The notes below the pieces were generated by a model, which saw only the letters and a program-made list of their open reading frames with translations, was not told the DNA's origin and did not search any database. 64,000 bases of DNA from an uncultured Bacteroidales bacterium (GTDB taxonomy: Bacteria > Bacteroidota > Bacteroidia > Bacteroidales > FEN-979): assembly GCA_903913885.1 (NCBI GenBank), contig CAIWMX010000009.1, positions 1,176 through 65,175 of the forward strand, given 5' to 3'. The stretch's first letter is position 1. The number at the start of each line of letters is the position of its first letter. Both the position numbers and the translations under genes were made by a program. Positions 4,324 through 15,106 of the stretch are shown one piece after another.

Positions 4324-4546
4324 GGTTTATTTACTGTGTGTCTGGTTTCTGATTAAACCTCGTTTCCCGTTTTTCAGTATTGCAGGAATATCAACGCCAA
4401 AAATCAACATATTGTTTGTAAAGTGCTATACATCTTCAGGGGAAATGCTATGCCAAATTTACGCTTTTTCTTTTGTGTCAGGAAATCAAAATTATTATTT
4501 TTATGGTTTGGTTTTACAAATAATTTAAACATGACATGAATAAAAA

Positions 4547-4999: not shown

Positions 5000-5169
5000 A
5001 CGCTGCTTCTTCTTATAAGTTTTACCATTGACAAATGCGTTGATCGTATCGGTCCATGACGATAAAGTTAACAATAAGTTGTAAATGTACTGAAATTGTG
5101 TTTTCAGGATGCCGGACGGTCGTGGTTCACACCCCTTTTTATCGTAGATTTGCATCAAACAAGCCGGAA

Positions 5170-5886
5170 ATGACCAGATTAAGCGTGAATATCAATAAAA
5201 TTGCGACTTTGAGGAATGCACGCGGAGGCGACCTTCCCAACGTTGTAAAAGCAGCCCTCGATTGCGAACGATTTGGCGCCGAAGGGATAACAGTACATCC
5301 CCGTCCCGACGAACGGCACATCCGGTATAAGGATGTCTTTGACCTGAAACCATTGCTGGCAGGTGAGTTTAACATTGAGGGGTATCCTTCGCGCGGATTT
5401 ATTGACATGGTTTGTTCTGTCAAACCAACCCAGGTTACTCTCGTGCCTGATCCGCCGGATGTGTTAACGTCCAATGCCGGCTGGGATACTTTCCTGCATG
5501 AGTCTTTTTTAACAGAAGTCATTGCTGAATTCAGGAAAAACGGGATCCGGACCTCCGTATTTATAGATCCGGACCCCGGGTTAATCCGCCAGGCCGTGAA
5601 AACCGGTACCGACCGCATCGAACTGTACACTGAATCCTATGCCAGGAATTTCCATGCCGACCGGGGTGAAGCCATCAGGACATACCGTGAAGCGGCAGTT
5701 GCAGCCTGTAATGCCGGGCTTGGAATCAATGCCGGCCATGACCTGAACCTGGAAAACCTGAAATATTTTGCACAGAATATCCCGGGGTTGCTCGAAGTTT
5801 CGATCGGGCATGCCCTGATCTGCGATGCGCTTTACCTTGGGCTGGAGAACTCGGTTCAGCTTTACCTGAGGCAGCTCATGGTATAG
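5170..5886 (+). CDS. pdxJ: Pyridoxine 5'-phosphate synthase
   Basis: [21 protein letters not shown]....[21 protein letters not shown]...NIEG is typical of PdxJ. Start trimmed to ATG 5170. Confidence 0.9.
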
Positions 5887-5929
5887 ATCTGCGAATATCG
5901 AATATTGATTAACGAATTTAGGAGTTAGA

Positions 5930-7174
5930 ATGGAAAAGATAGTTGGAGTTGTTTTGGTGCTTTTAGGCGGGTATTTCTGCGGATTTTCAGGCAACAAGCC
6001 CGGGGAGTTGGAAAAGAAGGCGGCGGCTATTCACAAGGCGGTGATCACCATCGATTCCCATACAGATACGCCAATGCAGATGATGCAAAAGGGATTTGAC
6101 ATGTCGGTGCGCCATGATGCGCGCAAGGAGTATTCAAAAATTGATTTTCCGCGCATGAAGGAGGGTGGGCTTAATGGCGTGTTTTTTGCGGTGTTTATAT
6201 CCCAGGGACCGAGAACCGCGGAAGCGAATGAAAAGGTCAGACAAAAAGCAATCACACTTTTTGACAGCATTCACGCCGTCGTTACCCGCAATCATGCGCT
6301 TGCTGAACTGGCGGTTTCACCCGCCGACCTTGTCAGGTTAACTAAAGAGGGTAAACGTGCGGCCTTTATCGGCATTGAAAACGGGTATGCGATCGGAAGG
6401 GATATTTCGCTGATCAGCACGTACTATTTGCGCGGCGCCCGCTACATCACCCTGTGCCACACCAAAAATAACGATATCTGCGACTCCTCGACCGATACAA
6501 CCGAACATCACGGTCTCAGCACTTTTGGCTATGAGGTGGTTCAGGAAATGAACCATGTAGGCATGATGGTGGACGTGTCGCATATTTCGGATAAGGCGGT
6601 AAAGGATGTGCTTGCATTTACCAAAGCACCTGTCATTGCTTCCCATTCCTGCGCAAAATCCATATGCAACAATCCCCGCAACCTGTCGGATGAATTGCTG
6701 AGGGCGATAGCAAAAAACGGTGGTGTGGTCCAGATGTGCATCCTGAGCGATTATGTAAAAACACCGGCGCCGGACCCTGCCCGCGACTCGGCCCGTGCAG
6801 CGCTCCGTAAAAAGTATCATGACTTTGACGGTTTGACCGACGACGAAATGAAAACAGCACACACAGATTGGAATTCGATGAATGACAGGTTTCCGCAGAA
6901 ACTTGCCAACGTGAGTGATGTGGCCGATCATATCGATCACCTTGTTAAAACAGCCGGGATCAATCATGTGGGTATTGGTACCGATTTTGATGGTGGCGGC
7001 GGGGTTGAAGGGTGTTTCGATGTAAGTGAAATGGGGAACATTACCCTGGAGCTGGTGAGAAGGGGATATTCCGAAAGCGAGCTCCGGAAAATTTGGGGAG
7101 GCAACCTCATGCGGGTCATGAAAAAAACCGCAAAAATTGCACAGGAATACCAGCTCCATTGCAGGTGCGACTGA
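5930..7174 (+). CDS. Membrane dipeptidase (peptidase M19 family), probable lipoprotein
   Basis: 414 aa. Signal/lipobox-like N-terminus, with HTD and DVSH metal-binding motifs (ITIDSHTDTP, MMVDVSHISDK, IGTDFDGGGG) as in renal-dipeptidase-type enzymes. Confidence 0.85.
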   Translation: MEKIVGVVLVLLGGYFCGFSGNKPGELEKKAAAIHKAVITIDSHTDTPMQMMQKGFDMSVRHDARKEYSKIDFPRMKEGGLNGVFFAVFISQGPRTAEANEKVRQKAITLFDSIHAVVTRNHALAELAVSPADLVRLTKEGKRAAFIGIENGYAIGRDISLISTYYLRGARYITLCHTKNNDICDSSTDTTEHHGLSTFGYEVVQEMNHVGMMVDVSHISDKAVKDVLAFTKAPVIASHSCAKSICNNPRNLSDELLRAIAKNGGVVQMCILSDYVKTPAPDPARDSARAALRKKYHDFDGLTDDEMKTAHTDWNSMNDRFPQKLANVSDVADHIDHLVKTAGINHVGIGTDFDGGGGVEGCFDVSEMGNITLELVRRGYSESELRKIWGGNLMRVMKKTAKIAQEYQLHCRCD

Positions 7175-7223
7175 TGACTTTTTTTCATTAACATTGCAGC
7201 ACAGCATCCAATAGTAAACTTTT

Positions 7224-7790
7224 ATGGAAGGACATGCCAAACATCCGGAAAATTATGAAGTTAAGGTGGTTCGCAGTATCTGGTCAAGGACGTGGGTGAG
7301 ATTATGCATGGTTTTTCTTGCCGGCCTGATTTCAGGGTTTGTTATTTTCAGTTTTTCTTCAGGAATCAGTAAGACAAAGAACCTTCCCGCGGCAAACCAG
7401 CAGGCAGCTCCTGCCTCACTGCAGGCGATCGACAGCCTTCAGCCACCTGAGGTGCTGCATTACGACACTCCGCTTACAAAAACAGTCTGTAAAGTCCGCT
7501 ATTCTGCCCGGTTTGTCGAGGTCAGGATTGATTTGTCTTCCCTGTATCCGCTGAAGTCATTGATTGAATTTGATGTCAATAACCTGTCGATTATAAACAT
7601 ACAGCATGTCAGCGTAAATGACCAGTCAACCAGCATGGCAGCTGCCAGTTTTGTGCAAATCAACAGTACGGGCGACAACAAATACATCGTTTTGTTAGCG
7701 AACAGGAATTCATTGCCTCACAAAATTGAATTTACCATATCGCAGAATGAATCGCAGATTTACAAAAATGCCGTGGAGATTAACAAATAG
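7224..7790 (+). CDS. Hypothetical single-pass membrane protein
   Basis: 188 aa. One TM helix (VRLCMVFLAGLISGFVIFSF) followed by a beta-rich extracytoplasmic domain. No recognised motif. Confidence 0.55.
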   Translation: MEGHAKHPENYEVKVVRSIWSRTWVRLCMVFLAGLISGFVIFSFSSGISKTKNLPAANQQAAPASLQAIDSLQPPEVLHYDTPLTKTVCKVRYSARFVEVRIDLSSLYPLKSLIEFDVNNLSIINIQHVSVNDQSTSMAAASFVQINSTGDNKYIVLLANRNSLPHKIEFTISQNESQIYKNAVEINK

Positions 7791-7823
7791 GGTGGTGGTA
7801 TCAATTCAGCAAACAAAATCCAG

Positions 7824-8756
7824 TTGACATTTCCGGAAGCACTTATATCAGGGGACCTGCGAGCCATCCGGTCATTTCCAAAAGCCGATCTGCACAACCA
7901 TTGCCTGCTTGGCGGCAGGCGATCGGTCATCGAAAAATATTACGGGAAAAAACTTGAAAAATTCAGGGCAACCGAACCCGGGATCAGGGAACTGAACCGA
8001 TGGATCGGGAAGGTTTACAGACCGTTCATTGAATTGCCCGGGGCTTTTGAAAAAGGAGTGGAGGCAGCTTTTGTGCAGGCAAAACATGACGGGGTTGCCA
8101 CACTGGAAATAAGTATTGATGCCTGTTTTGGCAGGATGTTCAATATAACGCCCGACCGGGTGGTGGCCACCCTGAAATATTATCACCAGGCGGTTGCTCC
8201 AGGTATTGATTTCAGGCCGGAACTGGGCTTTTCACGAAGCCAGCCCTTCGAAACACTTCATTCCTGTTTCGAAGACTATCTCGGTTTCCAGTATTTCAGG
8301 TCGATTGATCTTTATGATGATGAATTTGCCCAGTCCGTTGGTAATTTTAAACCAATCTACCGGCTGGCCCGCCAGTCGGGTATGAAATGCAAGGCACACG
8401 CCGGTGAGTTCGGAACCGCCGATTCAGTGATGGAAGCCATTGAGGTTCTTGAACTGGATGCCGTGCAGCATGGCATAGGGGCGGCCGGTTCCTCCATGGT
8501 TATGAAATGGCTTGCCGGCCTTCAAATTCCTTTAAACGTATGCCCGACGAGCAATATCAGGTTAAAACGGATTAGTTCCTATAAGACCCATCCTATACGC
8601 ACCCTGTTTGACCATGGCGTGAATGTGACGGTCAATACCGACGATGCGCTTGTGTTCAGGGATGGAAATTCAGAACAATACCGGAAACTTTACCGTTGCG
8701 GCTTATTCACGCCGGATGAATTGGACATGATCAGGAAAAACGGACTGGAGCAGTAA
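7824..8756 (+). CDS. Adenosine/adenine deaminase family protein
   Basis: DLHNHCLLGG near the N-terminus, HAGE and NTDD motifs (KAHAGEFG, VTVNTDDALVF) of the amidohydrolase-type deaminases. The only start that keeps the HxH motif is TTG at 7824, so the start is uncertain. Confidence 0.75.
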   Translation: MTFPEALISGDLRAIRSFPKADLHNHCLLGGRRSVIEKYYGKKLEKFRATEPGIRELNRWIGKVYRPFIELPGAFEKGVEAAFVQAKHDGVATLEISIDACFGRMFNITPDRVVATLKYYHQAVAPGIDFRPELGFSRSQPFETLHSCFEDYLGFQYFRSIDLYDDEFAQSVGNFKPIYRLARQSGMKCKAHAGEFGTADSVMEAIEVLELDAVQHGIGAAGSSMVMKWLAGLQIPLNVCPTSNIRLKRISSYKTHPIRTLFDHGVNVTVNTDDALVFRDGNSEQYRKLYRCGLFTPDELDMIRKNGLEQ

Positions 8757-8769
8757 CCTGACCTACCCG

Positions 8770-9717
8770 TCAGTGTTTTATCAATACTTTCAGGGTGTCG
8801 GGCTTTGAAGCAAATTCGAAAGCGGCCAGGATGTCGGTAAAATCAAAAGTCTTTGCAATAATGGGCGTTGGGTCAACAAGCCCCTTTATGAGCAGGTTCA
8901 ATGCAGGCGTAAAGGGGCCGCACCGCGAGCCGATAATCTCAAATTCATTGATCACGATCTGGTTCAGGTCAATTTTTGAGGAATTCGCCACGGTGGTTTT
9001 TAATACAAGTTTCCCCCCGGGATAGAGGTGTGTCATCGCCTGGCTTATCCCGCCGGCACTTCCCGTGCAGTCGACACAAACCTCTGCTTTGTCCTGGTCA
9101 TTCAGTGTGGAGAGCAATCCTGCACAAATCCCCATCGACCGGGCTTTATTTACTTTTGTTTCATTTGTGTCATACGTCGTTGCATCGCATCCGTTCATCT
9201 TGAAAACCAGTGAAATCAGCAATCCCAGCTTCCCTGCGCCAAAAATATATACCTTCTGCGACGGACTGATGTGCACCTGTTCGAATATTTCAACAGCAGC
9301 TGCCAGGGGTTCTGTAAAAACTGCCAGTTGGGCCGGGAAGTCTTGTGGAATAAGGTGCAGGTTTCTTTCGGGGAGTACCACGTAATCAGCAAAAACGCCA
9401 TCGTGCGCATAAATGCCCAGAACGGTGCGGCTGGTGCAGTGTCTCATACGGGCGTTGCGGCAGAGATAACATTCCCCGCAGTAACAATTGATCTCACCCA
9501 CTACTTTTTTGCCATAAAACTTCCCCGATCCGGACACAACCTCGCCCATAAATTCATGTCCCGGAATCCCCTTAAACGCCATATATCCCCGGGTAATTTC
9601 AAGATCGGTATTGCAGATGGCCGAATACAATACCCTGATCAGCACTTCATCCTTACCAGGTTCTGGTACCGGCAGTTCCGTCAATTTTAACGAGCCGTCA
9701 AAAAACAGGGCTTTCAT
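8770..9717 (-). CDS. Zn-dependent alcohol dehydrogenase (MDR superfamily)
   Basis: CNTDLEI...GHEFMGEV catalytic zinc motif, a structural-Zn Cys cluster (CYCGECYLCRNARMRHC) and a Rossmann GAGKLG. Confidence 0.85.
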   Translation of the reverse strand: MKALFFDGSLKLTELPVPEPGKDEVLIRVLYSAICNTDLEITRGYMAFKGIPGHEFMGEVVSGSGKFYGKKVVGEINCYCGECYLCRNARMRHCTSRTVLGIYAHDGVFADYVVLPERNLHLIPQDFPAQLAVFTEPLAAAVEIFEQVHISPSQKVYIFGAGKLGLLISLVFKMNGCDATTYDTNETKVNKARSMGICAGLLSTLNDQDKAEVCVDCTGSAGGISQAMTHLYPGGKLVLKTTVANSSKIDLNQIVINEFEIIGSRCGPFTPALNLLIKGLVDPTPIIAKTFDFTDILAAFEFASKPDTLKVLIKH

Positions 9718-9883: not shown

Positions 9884-11128
9884 ATGATAAAAAAATCGCA
9901 ACTTATTCTTTCTGTAATCCTTGTAATAGGTGCATTTGCCTGCAGCAAAAATGACAACACAAAATACCGGTCTGCAGCGAGCGGAGAAATCCGCATCGGC
10001 GCCCTGCTCCCGCTGACAGGTAGCGGGTCTTCAACAGGCCGGTCAATGAACATCTCGCTTGGTCTTGCCCGCCAGGATATTCAGAATTATCTCACCTCCG
10101 TCGGGAATCACAACACGATTTCAATGATTGTCGCCGATACAAAGACCGATACAGTGGAAGCGCTGAAACAACTGAAGATCTTTTACGACCAGGGTATCAG
10201 GTTGGTGATCGGGCCATACAGCAGTGCGGAACTATTGTCGCTCAAGAACTTTGCTGATACGCACGGGGTCATATTGGTGAGCCCTTCAAGTGTTGCAGTA
10301 TCATTGGCCATACCCGGGGATAATATCTTTCGCTTTGTTCCCAGCGATGTAATGCAAGGGGAGGCCATGAACAAGATGCTGACCGACGACAAAATCAAAG
10401 TGATCGTGCCTATCATCCGCAACGATGTGTGGGGAAATGATTTGCTGGACGTGGTCAGGAGCAATTTTATCAAAAGCGGGGGAACGGTTCAGCCACCGGT
10501 AAAATATGAACCGGGGACGACTGATTTTTCAGGTTTGCTGCCTCAGCTGGATGCCGTTGTTGCTGGAGAGCTAGACCATCACAATCCCAACGAGATAGCT
10601 GTTTACCTGCTCTCCTTCGCCGAAGGAGCAACAATCCTGAAAAGTGCTAAGAACTATGCCCACCTGAACAATGTTTACTGGTACGGAGGATCCGCTTTTT
10701 CAGGAAATGCAGATGCCATTGCCGACACTGTTGCAGCTCTGTTTGCTTACACGCACGGACTTCCATGCCCGGTGTATGGTCTTGAAGAATCGGCAAAAGA
10801 GCGGTGGCAGCCTTTGCGTGACCGTATACAGGCTGAACTGGGACGTATGCCCGAAGTATATGCATTTACGGCCTATGATGCGCTTTGGGTTGGCGTGTTG
10901 ACATACACGACCGTAGGTTTTTCACCTGATGTGAACCTGCTGAAGTCTGCTTTTACCATGGTTGCCGGAAATTATTTCGGTGCAACGGGCAACACGAAAC
11001 TCGACACCAACGGCGACCGGGCTGTGGGAAACTATGATTTCTGGGCAATCAAGCACGACACCACAGGGTATGCCTGGAAAAGGATAGCAAAATACAACTC
11101 CCTTTCGGGAACCCTCGTGAGGGAGTAA
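9884..11128 (+). CDS. Periplasmic-binding-protein type-1 (LivJ-like) solute-binding lipoprotein
   Basis: Lipoprotein signal (VILVIGAFACSKN), then IRIGALLPLTGSGSSTGRS...LVIGPYSSAE, typical of Leu/Ile/Val-binding-type SBPs. No permease or ATPase gene is adjacent. Confidence 0.6.
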   Translation: MIKKSQLILSVILVIGAFACSKNDNTKYRSAASGEIRIGALLPLTGSGSSTGRSMNISLGLARQDIQNYLTSVGNHNTISMIVADTKTDTVEALKQLKIFYDQGIRLVIGPYSSAELLSLKNFADTHGVILVSPSSVAVSLAIPGDNIFRFVPSDVMQGEAMNKMLTDDKIKVIVPIIRNDVWGNDLLDVVRSNFIKSGGTVQPPVKYEPGTTDFSGLLPQLDAVVAGELDHHNPNEIAVYLLSFAEGATILKSAKNYAHLNNVYWYGGSAFSGNADAIADTVAALFAYTHGLPCPVYGLEESAKERWQPLRDRIQAELGRMPEVYAFTAYDALWVGVLTYTTVGFSPDVNLLKSAFTMVAGNYFGATGNTKLDTNGDRAVGNYDFWAIKHDTTGYAWKRIAKYNSLSGTLVRE

Positions 11129-11151: not shown

Positions 11152-11640
11152 TCAGAGCTTTTTCACAAAAAAAACTTTGCCGTCGCCCTCTTTGTAAAAA
11201 TCGTCGATATGCGCTACGTTTGAATAGCCAACCCTGTCGTAAAAATGGCGCGTGGGCGTATATTTTTCCAGGGAGGAGGTTTCGGCAATCACGATCCGGC
11301 CGCCCATCTCCCTGATGATCCGGTGGGTTTCTTCAATGATCAGGTTGCCGATGCCCCTGCCGCGGTAATCGTTGTGCGTGGCGATCCAGTAAAGGTCAAA
11401 ACTGCCCTCCGTGCCGTCAATCGAGCCGAAGCAGGTGTACGAAACGGTTTTTCCGTCAAGTTCGGCGAATAGGAAATGATAGTCGCTTTGTACGCCCCGT
11501 TCAACCCGGTCCTCCACGAGTTCAAGGGCCACAGGGATTTCGAAGTCATAAAAAAAACCTGTGGAGACAATAATTTCTCTCACTGTCTCAATATCTGCAG
11601 GTGTGGCTTCCGAACGGAAAGTTAGTCTGGTATTCATCAT
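11152..11640 (-). CDS. GNAT-family N-acetyltransferase (last gene of the kamA operon)
   Basis: 162 aa. GNAT motif A is YRGRGIGNLIIEE. It starts 5 nt downstream of the preceding ATP-grasp gene. Confidence 0.8.
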   Translation of the reverse strand: MMNTRLTFRSEATPADIETVREIIVSTGFFYDFEIPVALELVEDRVERGVQSDYHFLFAELDGKTVSYTCFGSIDGTEGSFDLYWIATHNDYRGRGIGNLIIEETHRIIREMGGRIVIAETSSLEKYTPTRHFYDRVGYSNVAHIDDFYKEGDGKVFFVKKL

Positions 11641-11645
11641 AACTG

Positions 11646-12623
11646 CTATTTTCTTAATGCATCCTCCAGGATGCGTTGAACAACCCGGGGAAAGTCGAGC
11701 CCCTTCTTTTTGGATGCGGCCATAAAACCACCCGATTCGGAGAGGCAGGGGTTCAGGTTGATATCGATCACCAGTGGTTCCGAATCAACGGTGACCCGGA
11801 AATCGATCCTGACATACCCTTTCAGGCCCAGTTCATTCCAACATTTTTTGCAGATTTCGATCATCCGGTTCCGGAGGGGTTCGTCAGCCTTCGATAATTG
11901 AAAGGTACGGCGGGTATGCGAATATTCGAACGAATGTTCATCCCATTTTGACTTGTAACCCATCATTTTAGGCTTCCCTTCAGGATATCCTTTGAAGGTC
12001 ATTTCAGCCAGTGGGAGCACCTCGGGTCCCTTTTCGCTGTACAGGATGGAATTGTTGAACTCCCTTCCTTCGATGTATTCCTCGATAAAATAGTGATCAT
12101 GACTTTTCTTCACGATCTTGTTGATGAATTCCTGGTCAGAACCCATGAAAACACAATCTTCATCCAGTTCCAGCGAACCCTCTTCCCAGATGGGTTTAAT
12201 GATGTATTTTCTGTCGCTCGCCAGTTTACTGCATTCTTTCAAGGTAAACCCTGCCGGCGTGCTCACACCAATCCTGTCAAGCTCCCTTTTTGCAAGCAGT
12301 TTATTGGAACAATGGAACATGGGTATCAGCGGTGAACCGGTATAAGGTATCCTGGTAAAATTCAGGACTGAATTGGCCAGGAAGGTGAACTCGCCCTTGT
12401 TCCCGATGGTTTCGGCCAGGTTGAAGATAATATCGGGTTTTATGGCCTGCAACTGCCTGATGGCAGCTTTCAGGTTAAGATCAATCTGCATGTATTGAAC
12501 GTCATAACCAAGCGTAGTTAACGCTTCGGTCACCAGGTTTACCTGTTCAATCACATCCGCTTCATCATCTTTCGGTTTTTTCGACAGCTTGTTGTAAAAT
12601 ATAAGCACCGTTTTTTTCATCAT
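11646..12623 (-). CDS. ATP-grasp ligase, D-Ala-D-Ala-ligase-like (paralog 2)
   Basis: 326 aa from ATG 12621-12623; the ORF-track start at 12827 overlaps the upstream gene. ATP-grasp blocks: KLLAKRELDRIGVSTP, YIIKPIWEEGS, IEEYIEGREF, YVRIDFRV...VIDINLNP. Confidence 0.75.
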   Translation of the reverse strand: MMKKTVLIFYNKLSKKPKDDEADVIEQVNLVTEALTTLGYDVQYMQIDLNLKAAIRQLQAIKPDIIFNLAETIGNKGEFTFLANSVLNFTRIPYTGSPLIPMFHCSNKLLAKRELDRIGVSTPAGFTLKECSKLASDRKYIIKPIWEEGSLELDEDCVFMGSDQEFINKIVKKSHDHYFIEEYIEGREFNNSILYSEKGPEVLPLAEMTFKGYPEGKPKMMGYKSKWDEHSFEYSHTRRTFQLSKADEPLRNRMIEICKKCWNELGLKGYVRIDFRVTVDSEPLVIDINLNPCLSESGGFMAASKKKGLDFPRVVQRILEDALRK

Positions 12624-12642
12624 CCCGATATTTTCCTGGTCG

Positions 12643-13620
12643 TTAAATTTTAGCCCTTTTTCTTGCAGATTCCATGATTTCACGGATGATCCTTTCAAAA
12701 TCGTACCCGTGCATATACGCGAGGATAGGAAGATCGGAATGAACCTTGTCCAGCCCGGCCAGGGGGTTAACTTCAATAAAATTCGGGATGCCCGACCGGT
12801 CGGCACGGATGTCGACCCTCCCGCCATCCCTGCATCCCAGCACGTGCCAGGTTTTCAAGGCAAGGCTGATGCATTTTTCCGAGATATCATTTTCAGGGAT
12901 TTGATACTCCACTGCTTTCAGGTAGTCAGATTTTGTCTGGTAGGAATAGATGCTGTTGGTTTCTTCCTGCCTGTATAAAATTTCCATGATGCCGACAGGA
13001 TAAGCCTCTTCACCTGTACCCAGGATCCCAACGGTGAATTCCCTGCCGGGCAGGTACTCCTCTACCAGCAGGCCTGACGGGTAGCGGGTCAGCAAATCCC
13101 GGCATACATGCAGCAATTCTTCAGGGTTGGTTACCCTCGACAGGGAATTGATCCCTTTCCCGGTTCCTTCGGCATTCGGCTTGACAAACAGCGGGTAGGG
13201 CAGGTTTACAACGGCGATATCCTGTTCGTTACACACAACAGCAAAATCAGGGGTGGGGATGCCGCAGTCGCGGACTACACGCTTGGTCATGCCTTTGTGC
13301 AAGGTCAGGGAGAGCACCAGAGCATCGGAGAAGGTATATGGCACCTGGTAGGCATCAAGCAAGGCAGGAACCTGCGCTTCGCGGCCAATGCCGAACATTC
13401 CTTCGCAGATGTTGAACACCAGGTCCCATCGGTCTCCGTTAACCAGGCGGGAGGTGAGATGGCGAACGTGGCCGATCCTATCGGTCTGGTAGCCCAGCTG
13501 TTGCAGGGTCAGTTCGATGGCTTCGATGGTACTTTCACGGTCAAATTCCGCTGTTTCCTCTTCGCTGTAGCCTTCCTGCAGGTAATCTGACCGTAAATCG
13601 TACGTTAATCCTATGGTCAT
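12643..13620 (-). CDS. ATP-grasp ligase, D-Ala-D-Ala-ligase-like (paralog 1)
   Basis: 325 aa. Blocks: HKGMTKRVVRDCGIPTP, LFVKPNAEGTGKGI, VEEYLPGREFTVGI, GGRVDIRADRSG.PNFIEVNPLAG. It starts 3 nt after the kamA stop. Confidence 0.75.
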   Translation of the reverse strand: MTIGLTYDLRSDYLQEGYSEEETAEFDRESTIEAIELTLQQLGYQTDRIGHVRHLTSRLVNGDRWDLVFNICEGMFGIGREAQVPALLDAYQVPYTFSDALVLSLTLHKGMTKRVVRDCGIPTPDFAVVCNEQDIAVVNLPYPLFVKPNAEGTGKGINSLSRVTNPEELLHVCRDLLTRYPSGLLVEEYLPGREFTVGILGTGEEAYPVGIMEILYRQEETNSIYSYQTKSDYLKAVEYQIPENDISEKCISLALKTWHVLGCRDGGRVDIRADRSGIPNFIEVNPLAGLDKVHSDLPILAYMHGYDFERIIREIMESARKRAKI

Positions 13621-13623
13621 AAG

Positions 13624-14895
13624 TTATTGGGTAAAATCGGGGTACCTGAAGATTTTATCTTCATAATTCTTTAAAAGGGCGTATCCGTCCTCGCGTCCCA
13701 CAAAGTATTCAGGCAGCAGGGGGATTTTTCCGCCTCCTCCGGGCGCATCCACCACGTAAGTTGGCACTGCGTACCCGCTGGTATGGCCGCGAAGGCCCCT
13801 GATGATCTCAAGGCCTTTTTCAATGGTTGTACGGAAATGCCCGGAACCCACCACGGGATCACATTGGTAGAGGTAATAGGGGCGAACCCTTATTTTAAGC
13901 AATTCATGCATCAGTTTTTTCATCACCTCCACCTCGTCGTTGACGTTTTTCAGCAGCACTGTCTGGCTCCCCAGGGGAATGCCGGCATTGGCAAGCTTTT
14001 CGCATGCTTCTTTCACCTCCGGCGTAATTTCGTCGGCATGGGTGAAGTGGATGCTCATATACAGGGGGTGATATTTCTTCAGCATGTTGACCAGTGGCCG
14101 GGTGATGCGTTGCGGAAGCACGGCAGGCACTTTGGTGCCGATGCGGATGATCTCGACATGGGGAATGCTCCGCAATCGAGAAAGCAGGTATTCAACATGC
14201 AGGTCGGGCATGGTGAGCGGGTCGCCTCCCGAAACCAGGACATCGCGAACCTCGGGATGCTGTTCGATATAATTAAGACCGGCTTCCCACGATTTGATCC
14301 CGATATGGCATTTATCTTTTGCCACCATGCGCGTACGCGTACAGTAGCGGCAATAGGTGGAACAGAAGCCGGTAACCAGGAACAAAACACGGTCGGGATA
14401 ACGGTGAACAATGTTGGGCACCGGACTGTCGTGTTCTTCTGAAAGGGGGTCGGAATTCTCCCCGTCATGCACCAGGAACTCATCAAACACCGGGACGACA
14501 CTCTTTCGCAACGCCTGTTCAGGGTTGTCCTGATCCAACAGGCTTATATAATATGGAGAAATACGAAGGGGAAGCGATTGGCTTTTTGTTTCGAAGGGCT
14601 TGACTTCATTGTCGGAAAGCCGGATAAATCTTGCCAACTGCTCTATTGAACGGGCGCTGTTCCTGATCTGCCAGTGCCAGTTATTCCAGTCTTTGATGGT
14701 GGCTTCAGGAAAGTAAGTCTGCATGAACGCAAGAGAACGTTCACTGATTAAGGTTTTATCACGATCGATCCGTGATTTTAAATATTCGTCTAAAAGGGAG
14801 GCTTCATCTATATAGGTGGACTGACTTGGAGGTTCTTCTTCTTCTGATAATTCGGGATGAGGGATGACCAGTTTCTCTGTTGGATTTTTTTCCAT
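13624..14895 (-). CDS. kamA: Lysine 2,3-aminomutase (KamA-family radical SAM/PLP enzyme)
   Basis: 423 aa. W.WQ.RN N-terminal motif, HRYPDRVLFLVT, radical-SAM CSTYCRYCTR, SGGDPL, RPYYLYQCDPV and VVDAPGGGGK blocks are co-linear with Clostridium LAM. Both Asp residues that bind the lysine epsilon-amine appear retained. Confidence 0.88.
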   Translation of the reverse strand: MEKNPTEKLVIPHPELSEEEEPPSQSTYIDEASLLDEYLKSRIDRDKTLISERSLAFMQTYFPEATIKDWNNWHWQIRNSARSIEQLARFIRLSDNEVKPFETKSQSLPLRISPYYISLLDQDNPEQALRKSVVPVFDEFLVHDGENSDPLSEEHDSPVPNIVHRYPDRVLFLVTGFCSTYCRYCTRTRMVAKDKCHIGIKSWEAGLNYIEQHPEVRDVLVSGGDPLTMPDLHVEYLLSRLRSIPHVEIIRIGTKVPAVLPQRITRPLVNMLKKYHPLYMSIHFTHADEITPEVKEACEKLANAGIPLGSQTVLLKNVNDEVEVMKKLMHELLKIRVRPYYLYQCDPVVGSGHFRTTIEKGLEIIRGLRGHTSGYAVPTYVVDAPGGGGKIPLLPEYFVGREDGYALLKNYEDKIFRYPDFTQ

Positions 14896-15045
14896 TGCTT
14901 TTTTCTCGGTTATGAGGTTAAGATTAATGATGCCCCCTACCAGTATAGTAAATGTTTAAGTGATTATAAATCAATTTATTATATATAGTTGTGAAGATCA
15001 TCATGAACAATTCAATTTCCATTGCAAATAGGCTGCAAATTTATG

Positions 15046-15053
15046 TAATTTTG
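15046..15053 (+). promoter_or_regulatory. Bacteroidota -7 promoter box (TAnnTTTG)
   Basis: TAATTTTG lies 54 nt upstream of the ATG at 15107. Confidence 0.4.
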
Positions 15054-15106
15054 ACTCTTTGAAACGATTATTTTTCAACAAAATTGTGTTAATAATTCGA
15101 TGCTGA

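Follow-up and report, generated by a model that had tools for sequence, protein, structure and literature searches.

Beta-lysine has four known fates: it is acetylated to an osmolyte, used to modify elongation factor P (EF-P), fermented, or built into antibiotics. Among the closest described systems, the AblA/AblB pair makes the compatible solute N-epsilon-acetyl-beta-lysine in methanogens and in some bacteria, and in the system for N-acetylglutaminylglutamine amide (NAGGN) the enzyme Ngg is a fusion of a GNAT acetyltransferase with an ATP-grasp ligase. The present analysis concerns a four-gene cassette in a 64,000-nt stretch of DNA from an uncultured Bacteroidales bacterium (contig CAIWMX010000009.1; the whole stretch is called the window), which encodes a KamA-family aminomutase, two Ddl-like ATP-grasp ligases (G1 and G2) and a small GNAT. 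Gene content and residue changes suggest, with a probability that we would place somewhat on the favourable side, that this cassette is a pathway to an N-acetylated beta-lysyl di- or tripeptide-like amide. The cassette is outside the AblAB, EpmAB, lysine-fermentation, Ddl and graspetide systems, one defining feature of each being absent from it. No description of the cassette was found in the open full-text literature, subscription journals lying outside the search.

The four open reading frames (ORFs) are all on the minus strand of the window, and their gaps, read directly from the DNA, are 3, 19 and 5 nt. The junctions read TAA-ctt-ATG between kamA and G1, TAA-19 nt-ATG between G1 and G2, and TAG-cagtt-ATG between G2 and the GNAT gene. 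The longest ORF of G2 reaches 12827, which is 204 nt further upstream and overlaps the end of G1; since all homologues begin at MMKK, the start at 12623 is taken as that of G2. The features are as follows.

kamA: 13624-14895, minus strand; 423 aa; predicted radical S-adenosylmethionine (SAM)/pyridoxal phosphate (PLP) lysine 2,3-aminomutase; Pfam Radical_SAM and LAM_C.
G1: 12643-13620, minus strand; 325 aa; Ddl-fold ATP-grasp protein; Pfam Dala_Dala_lig_C.
G2: 11646-12623, minus strand; 325 aa; divergent Ddl-fold ATP-grasp protein; Pfam Dala_Dala_lig_C and ATP-grasp_3.
GNAT: 11152-11640, minus strand; 162 aa; small N-acetyltransferase of the 2R7H family; Pfam Acetyltransf_1/7.
Conserved intergenic block: 15023-15093, strand unassigned; within the 211-nt spacer between kamA and an alpha/beta-hydrolase gene.

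By scanning 1.84 billion representative proteins with G2 in HMMER, 822 clusters of relatives (50% identity) were obtained at E<1e-30, and a scan with the G2 alignment, taking one genome per species, found a relative in at least 559 species genomes. The best 80 loci lie in their majority in Bacteroidota, and the others come from Desulfobacterota (Syntrophales among them), Planctomycetota, Fibrobacter, Spirochaetia, Krumholzibacteriia, Anaerolinea and further groups; the carrier species are mostly anaerobic. The matches from Draconibacterium and Maribellus belong to metagenome-assembled genomes. The arrangement of the cassette was then counted over 83 loci (cited below by L numbers) from ORF calls of at least 70 aa and phmmer comparisons. 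The counts are listed here, several of the shorter arrangements being loci cut by contig ends.

KamA-G1-G2-GNAT: 49 of 83 loci.
KamA-G1-G2: 15 of 83 loci.
G1-G2-GNAT: 7 of 83 loci.
G2-GNAT: 6 of 83 loci.
G1-G2: 4 of 83 loci.
KamA-G2-GNAT: 1 of 83 loci.
G2 only: 1 of 83 loci.

The first-pass annotation of this DNA had read the four closely packed genes as one operon and had looked to relatives for the same arrangement. Both expectations are borne out, as the coordinates and gaps match and the full order recurs far beyond Bacteroidales. Across the loci, the distances between the genes have medians of 11, -1 and 5 nt, and overlaps of 4 nt are common. In addition, natural fusions occur among the G2 clusters, namely G1-G2 proteins of approximately 640-730 aa, G2-GNAT proteins of approximately 510-545 aa and one G2-KamA protein of 707 aa. 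Because the same order is found in several phyla, the gaps are short or overlapping and pairs of the genes are also fused, the clustering exceeds chance. G2 is the hub of the cassette: it is the component found most often in fusions, has fused forms with each of the other cassette proteins, and is kept with the GNAT when the others are missing. Taken together, these results describe a self-contained module with functionally coupled components, which is mobile between phyla. None of the four cassette proteins matches any anti-phage defence model of PADLOC.

The first enzyme is closely related to 2A5H, the only solved lysine 2,3-aminomutase, with an E value of 3e-127 and 51% identity over 358 aligned aa. 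In its CSTYCRYC motif, C178, C182 and C185 fall on C125, C129 and C132 of 2A5H, which hold the iron-sulfur cluster. By the same alignment, R187 corresponds to R134, which contacts the lysine carboxylate; D346 and D383 correspond to D293 and D330, which contact the lysine epsilon-ammonium group; and K390 corresponds to K337, the PLP lysine. Each of these seven residues is at least 97% conserved in 58 cassette-linked KamAs. The D293/D330 pair is what we take to be the mark of specificity for lysine rather than glutamate.

The class of KamA was assigned from NCBIfam model scores together with the active-site residues. KamA passes the KamA-family model TIGR00238 (373.9 bits against a cut-off of 199.2), and its best-scoring equivalog model is AblA, with a match that spans model positions 2-360 of 417. 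The glutamate 2,3-aminomutase (Eam) model TIGR04368 gives 443.4 bits against 650, both D293/D330 positions being Asp; the arginine 2,3-aminomutase model gives 390 bits against 600; and the EpmB equivalog gives 258.1 bits against 369.3. Compared with the clostridial lysine 2,3-aminomutase, KamA carries an N-terminal extension of approximately 55 residues, and approximately 50-55 residues are missing at the C-terminus. Strong homology thus predicts that KamA converts L-lysine to (3S)-beta-lysine. The first-pass annotation had claimed a radical-SAM motif, the retention of both lysine-binding acidic residues, beta-lysine as the predicted product and, as a condition of its proposal, a place outside the EpmB clade. 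All four hold: the cluster cysteines and both acidic residues align as described, the lysine-specific active-site residues are all present, so that beta-lysine is still the predicted product, and the EpmB score falls short while AblA scores best, with the LAM_C domain present.

G1 and G2 share 23% identity with each other and 25-28% identity with E. coli DdlB, and their best NCBIfam Ddl scores are 153.3 bits and 99.8 bits, respectively, against a cut-off of 243. When the PDB is searched with G1 and G2 by sequence and by profile, the matches are Ddl/Van enzymes and, distantly, an L-amino acid ligase, glycinamide ribonucleotide (GAR) synthetases and GshAB; RimK-type and graspetide ligases are absent from these matches. 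The AlphaFold2 model of G1, with a predicted local distance difference test (pLDDT) value of 87, finds its best PDB matches in Ddl at a template modelling (TM) score of 0.76 and 23-28% identity. The pockets were compared by alignment, in which the functional residues of DdlB, whose reference sequence was checked to be identical to 2DLN, were mapped on 72 G1 and 81 G2 sequences.

The equivalents of K97, K144, E180, E187, K215, R255, D257, E270 and N272 are invariant in both families, with E270 being E or D in G2, and those of G276 and S281 are also invariant in G1. Since the ATP-binding, Mg-binding and catalytic residues are invariant, both proteins should be active, that is, catalytically competent ATP-grasp ligases. 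The substrate sites are replaced in a different way in each family. In G1, Y216 becomes E or S, L282 becomes an invariant aspartate (D296), E68 becomes an invariant arginine (R80), and S150 becomes T. In G2, Y216 becomes an invariant tryptophan (W227), G276 an invariant cysteine (C293), and L282 an invariant glycine (G299); the N-terminal acidic position is the invariant D20, and a second invariant aspartate, D23, follows three residues on. The extra invariant acidic residues in both pockets would fit ammonium-bearing substrates such as beta-lysine.

Another finding on the ligases is that one Bacteroidales locus, L022, also encodes a bona fide Ddl at L022:13373-14473, 4.4 kb downstream of the cassette. 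This protein passes NF002525 (508.8 bits against a cut-off of 457) and keeps E15, S150, Y216 and S281, with M in place of L282. Since L022 thus has a genuine Ddl besides the cassette, G1 and G2 are extra paralogues and not the housekeeping enzyme. The distinction from the housekeeping Ddl, on which the first proposal depended, is therefore upheld by the sub-threshold scores, the low identity to DdlB, the replacement of Y216 and L282, and the separate Ddl of L022. In public annotation, these ligases carry the name 'D-alanine--D-alanine ligase'.

The same relationship raises the question of cell-envelope chemistry. In such a scheme, the pair of Ddl paralogues would either produce an alternative dipeptide or attach beta-lysine to a precursor of peptidoglycan or of lipids. 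Ddl enzymes are indeed the closest characterised relatives of both ligases, and an envelope decoration had been suggested when the locus was first read. However, the residues that hold the second D-alanine are changed, the cassette is not accompanied by mur, fem, flippase or lipid-linked genes, no export signal is present, and the cassette is carried by phyla with very different envelopes. Envelope chemistry is consequently regarded as very unlikely.

A further comparison is prompted by the succession of two ligases of approximately 325 aa and a small acetyltransferase. Microviridin systems contain two ATP-grasp enzymes and a small GNAT (MdnB/MdnC/MdnD), and the cassette resembles this set, so that a graspetide-type ribosomal peptide system with KamA as an extra tailoring enzyme may be imagined. 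Nevertheless, the ORFs of at least 70 aa around the cassette include no conserved small ORF or precursor family, and the internal gaps are too short to hold one; the PDB sequence and profile matches are of the Ddl type; and KamA has a complete binding site for free lysine. We regard such a system as barely credible.

The last enzyme of the cassette matches PDB entry 2R7H with an E value of 2e-37. This entry comes from structural genomics and bears the label 'putative D-alanine N-acetyltransferase'; no study of its function was found. The acetyl-CoA loop RGRGIG is present in the GNAT, with G98 at least 97% conserved. In NCBIfam, the only matches are RimI (36 bits against 86) and PRK03624, both below cut-off, and no AblB-type model matches at E<=0.01. 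The view that this enzyme differs from the AblB-type acetyltransferases can thus be retained, on account of its length of 162 aa, the lack of an AblB match and its place in the 2R7H family.

Based on these results, the plain AblAB pathway can be weighed. AblA is the best model for KamA at 481 bits, and the pairing of an aminomutase with an acetyltransferase is the AblAB logic (PMC3543383). On the other hand, the GNAT is 162 aa long and has no AblB match, the two ligases accompany KamA and the GNAT in a conserved manner in several phyla and form fusions with them in some organisms, and these ligases fail the Ddl cut-offs, have lost Y216 and L282, and coexist with a real Ddl, so they are not a housekeeping Ddl that happens to lie there. 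The plain AblAB reading is already largely refuted, and we consider it most improbable.

It is worth noting that a protein 99% identical to 2R7H is encoded last in an identical KamA-G1-G2-GNAT operon on contigs like those of Oleidesulfovibrio alaskensis G20 (L084:8001-8531). The PFL-like gene upstream of this operon is Dde_3039 (PMC4045070), and the PP2C phosphatase gene three genes downstream is Dde_3047 (PMC8836040). From this neighbour numbering, 2R7H fits Dde_3044, and the G20 operon would be Dde_3041-3044, with the sigma-54 activator as Dde_3040. The same operon is found in Desulfovibrio mangrovi (CP104208). An archived transposon library exists for D. alaskensis G20 (PMC4045070), and since the operon is present in this strain (Desulfovibrio or Oleidesulfovibrio alaskensis), the cassette is genetically testable.

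In Desulfovibrio, the operon is preceded immediately by a gene for an NtrC-family sigma-54 enhancer-binding protein, at L084:2874-4465 and L086:2857-4569. In L085, a truncated upstream ORF and an identical spacer suggest the same activator gene. L086 has a textbook sigma-54 promoter, TGGCATATCTGTTGCT, at 4457, and GGAAC-N6-GTTCC palindromes are present in all three spacers (L084, L085 and L086). The combination of a sigma-54 promoter with its own enhancer-binding protein points to conditional expression in Desulfovibrio.

Next to the G20 operon, at L084:8684-12179, are SiaC-like, DUF6272, SpoIIE (PP2C) and GGDEF genes, which have the look of a SiaABCD-type cyclic di-GMP module. The SpoIIE/SiaC/GGDEF set was considered as part of the cassette and is taken instead as an independent signalling module. 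A gene for a response regulator joined to PP2C also follows the cassette in some Bacteroidales (L001:10580-11764), which is probably coincidental.

Clustering of all flanking ORFs revealed one further recurring family and no other. It is a protein of approximately 580-600 aa, present in 15-16 of the 83 loci (approximately one fifth), in which a weak N-terminal GNAT-like domain is joined to a histone deacetylase (HDAC) domain, and it is highly conserved between phyla. The closest solved relatives of the HDAC domain are acetylpolyamine amidohydrolases, with an E value of 4e-66. The position of the gene varies: it may separate KamA from G1 or G2 from the GNAT, or it may follow the GNAT. The gene is absent from the window; its locations elsewhere are given on the following line.

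Accessory deacetylase: L022:5282-7024, L038:8974-10773, L080:7587-9401 and L086:8629-10386, with approximately 12 other related loci.

Since the GNAT is sometimes paired with this acetylpolyamine-amidohydrolase-like deacetylase, the acetylation of an aliphatic primary amine, for example the beta-lysyl epsilon-amine, may be reversible. Among the flanking ORFs of at least 70 aa in the 83 loci, no recurring transporter, regulator, precursor peptide, efp, epmA, ablB or kamDE/kdd/kce/kal gene was found. Only G1, G2, the GNAT and the HDAC fusion recur with the cassette, which sets it apart from lysine fermentation.

These flanking genes bear on two other explanations. The first is protein modification, in which the ligases would attach or extend beta-lysine on a protein side chain or C-terminus, with the GNAT and the deacetylase tuning the result. 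ATP-grasp enzymes include protein-modifying ligases, such as RimK acting on ribosomal protein S6; the best NCBIfam match of the GNAT is RimI, though far below the cut-off (36 against 86 bits); the accessory deacetylase belongs to the HDAC superfamily; and the lack of a linked transporter would fit an intracellular target. Against these points, no gene for a target, whether efp, a ribosomal protein or another, recurs in the 83 loci; the ligases share the fold of Ddl, a fold characteristic of small-molecule ligases, and are not of the RimK type; the deacetylase is nearest to small-molecule acetylpolyamine amidohydrolases and not to protein deacetylases; KamA is not of the EpmB type; and the patchy distribution and the sigma-54 control speak against a core role in translation. 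Protein modification is thus held to be unlikely.

The second explanation is a secreted or specialised natural product containing beta-lysine, such as an antibiotic or a metal chelator, with the GNAT providing self-resistance. Beta-lysine is found in several antibiotics, and GNATs that acetylate the beta-lysine moiety, the streptothricin acetyltransferases, confer resistance; ATP-grasp ligases also build peptide natural products, and the L-amino acid ligase BL00235 is a distant PDB match (E 1e-8). However, neither an exporter nor a tailoring enzyme nor a resistance transporter is conserved in the neighbourhood. The cassette keeps the same minimal form in at least 559 species genomes from many phyla, and in Bacteroidales it sits among syntenic housekeeping neighbours; both features are atypical for such clusters. 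A natural product therefore seems decidedly unlikely.

We return to the preferred reading, the N-acetylated beta-lysyl amide. Once beta-lysine has been formed by KamA, which would use its [4Fe-4S] cluster, SAM and PLP for the conversion of L-lysine, G1 and G2 would form one amide bond each through an acyl-phosphate, with beta-lysine as at least one of the partners. The product of this step would be di- or tripeptide-like; it might consist of beta-lysine units joined to one another, for example, or of beta-lysine with other amino acids or amines on its flanks. Subsequently, the GNAT would acetylate the remaining aliphatic primary amine with acetyl-CoA and reduce its positive charge, and in some genomes the cassette-encoded deacetylase would reverse this step. 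The product would be made on demand, as the promoter and activator in Desulfovibrio suggest. Because no exporter or target gene is linked to the cassette, a cytoplasmic small molecule is favoured, and the compound probably stays in the cytoplasm. Its most likely role is that of a cytoplasmic solute, a polyamine-like compound or a nitrogen-rich reserve, and this is the least certain part of the proposal. A more specific version, that the compound belongs to a new class of small cationic or zwitterionic metabolites, being an oligo-beta-lysine or polyamine-like beta-lysyl amide whose charge is switched by the GNAT and the deacetylase and which serves hundreds of anaerobes as a solute, polyamine surrogate or nitrogen reserve, is put forward only tentatively, as a possibility that falls somewhat short of probable.

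Several observations weigh against this pathway or parts of it. KamA remains below the cut-off of the AblA equivalog TIGR03820 (480.8 bits against 525.4), a shortfall that is due in part to the missing C-terminal part of the model. The single-sequence AlphaFold model of G2 has a pLDDT of 40 and offers no usable pocket, and we infer the ligation and acetylation steps from gene content and residue changes. In one Bacteroidales subclade (L048, L052, L065, L066, L071 and L078), the cassette is KamA-G1-G2 without the GNAT, so acetylation is not universal. Reduced cassettes also occur. G2 and the GNAT stand alone at L027:7938-9496, in a metagenome-assembled genome (MAG) of Phycisphaeraceae, and at L042:7977-9612, in a Maribellus MAG, and KamA-G2-GNAT without G1 is found at L061:6609-9499, in a Spirochaetia MAG. 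Together with the G1-G2-GNAT loci, these may mean that beta-lysine is not obligate or that G1 is dispensable. The flanks of the variant loci contain genes for FtsZ, an epimerase, an OEP family protein and an M14 peptidase, which are unrelated and give no clue to the substrate. Finally, most of the source samples appear from their record titles to be fresh water, soil, groundwater and digesters and not saline, which weakens a pure role as a salt osmolyte.

If the proposal is correct, a ligase-dependent route would be a fifth fate of beta-lysine and its product a new class of metabolite, conserved in environmentally important anaerobes (at least 559 species genomes), including Bacteroidales, syntrophs, sulfate reducers and Planctomycetes. 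Two new specificities would be added to the Ddl-fold ATP-grasp enzymes, of interest for the biocatalysis of beta-peptide bonds, and, should the oligo-beta-lysine or beta-lysyl amide version hold, G1 and G2 would found two new Ddl-fold ligase families that accept beta-amino acids. In addition, the orphan structure 2R7H would gain a function, and the automatic 'D-alanine--D-alanine ligase' label on many proteins would be corrected.

Upstream of kamA in the window, the spacer between kamA and the hydrolase gene has 55 columns that are invariant in nine Bacteroidales loci, concentrated in 15023-15093. Inside this block lie TAAATTTG at 15036-15043 on the minus strand and a near-palindrome, TTAACA..TGTTGAA. 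Judging from this conservation, the block probably holds promoter or operator elements, either of kamA or of the divergent alpha/beta-hydrolase gene. No riboswitch or other RNA family of Rfam was found in the window or in 20 related loci except an unrelated Acido-Lenti-1 match. This match lies on the Phycisphaeraceae contig at L027:238-284, far from the cassette, and scores 38.8 bits against a gathering score of 37.

The neighbours of the cassette in the window are, by domain annotation, a hydrolase, a binding protein, an alcohol dehydrogenase (ADH) and a deaminase-like protein. Type IX secretion system (T9SS) sorting domains occur in flanking genes of the window, and the nearest homologues are proteins of Bacteroidales MAGs. 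Downstream of the cassette, positions 5056-9717 encode PdxJ, an M19 membrane dipeptidase, an adenosine-deaminase-like protein and a zinc alcohol dehydrogenase; PdxJ acts in the synthesis of PLP, the cofactor of KamA. A Peripla_BP_6 solute-binding protein (9884-11128) adjoins the GNAT gene. Among these five neighbours, the ADH-type gene alone recurs in the one more distant relative that was checked (L001). The alpha/beta-hydrolase, LiaF/PspC and TatC genes were considered as members of the system and rejected, being syntenic among close Bacteroidales relatives only.

By comparison with known systems, the cassette would work most like AblA/AblB with two ligation steps inserted. As in that pair, an aminomutase with the same lysine-binding residues and a GNAT are encoded in one operon. 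Unlike that pair, the cassette has two ATP-grasp ligases between the aminomutase and the GNAT, which are conserved or fused with both; its GNAT belongs to the much smaller 2R7H-like family; and its KamA scores below the AblA cut-off and is missing the C-terminal part. With EpmA/EpmB acting on EF-P, the cassette shares a KamA-family aminomutase that would supply beta-lysine for a subsequent amide linkage. However, its KamA is not of the EpmB type, neither EpmA, a LysRS paralogue, nor efp is linked to it in the 83 loci, and its ligases are ATP-grasp enzymes and not aminoacyl-adenylate-forming enzymes.

The ligases themselves resemble Ddl and VanA in the fold of G1 (TM 0.76) and in the ATP, Mg and acyl-phosphate residues kept by both, which imply ATP-dependent amide-bond chemistry. 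In contrast to Ddl and VanA, the identity is only 23-28%, the residues Y216, L282, G276 and S150 are replaced family-invariantly, and there is no cell-wall gene context. With NAGGN, the cassette has in common the logic of a dipeptide capped by N-acetylation, and the G2-GNAT fusions are the same two-domain combination as Ngg. Here the differences are that none of the models of the NAGGN trio is matched, that the ATP-grasp enzymes of the cassette are of the Ddl type with the domain order reversed, that an AsnO-type amidotransferase is absent, and that a dedicated aminomutase would supply a beta-amino acid. Finally, the small GNAT and the deacetylase, which occur together in approximately one fifth of the loci, recall the pair formed by SpeG-type GNATs and acetylpolyamine amidohydrolases, an analogy that again suggests reversible acetylation of an aliphatic primary amine. 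Unlike the polyamine system, the deacetylase has an additional GNAT-like domain at its N-terminus and sits in a beta-lysine and ligase cassette, to which no genes of polyamine biosynthesis are linked.

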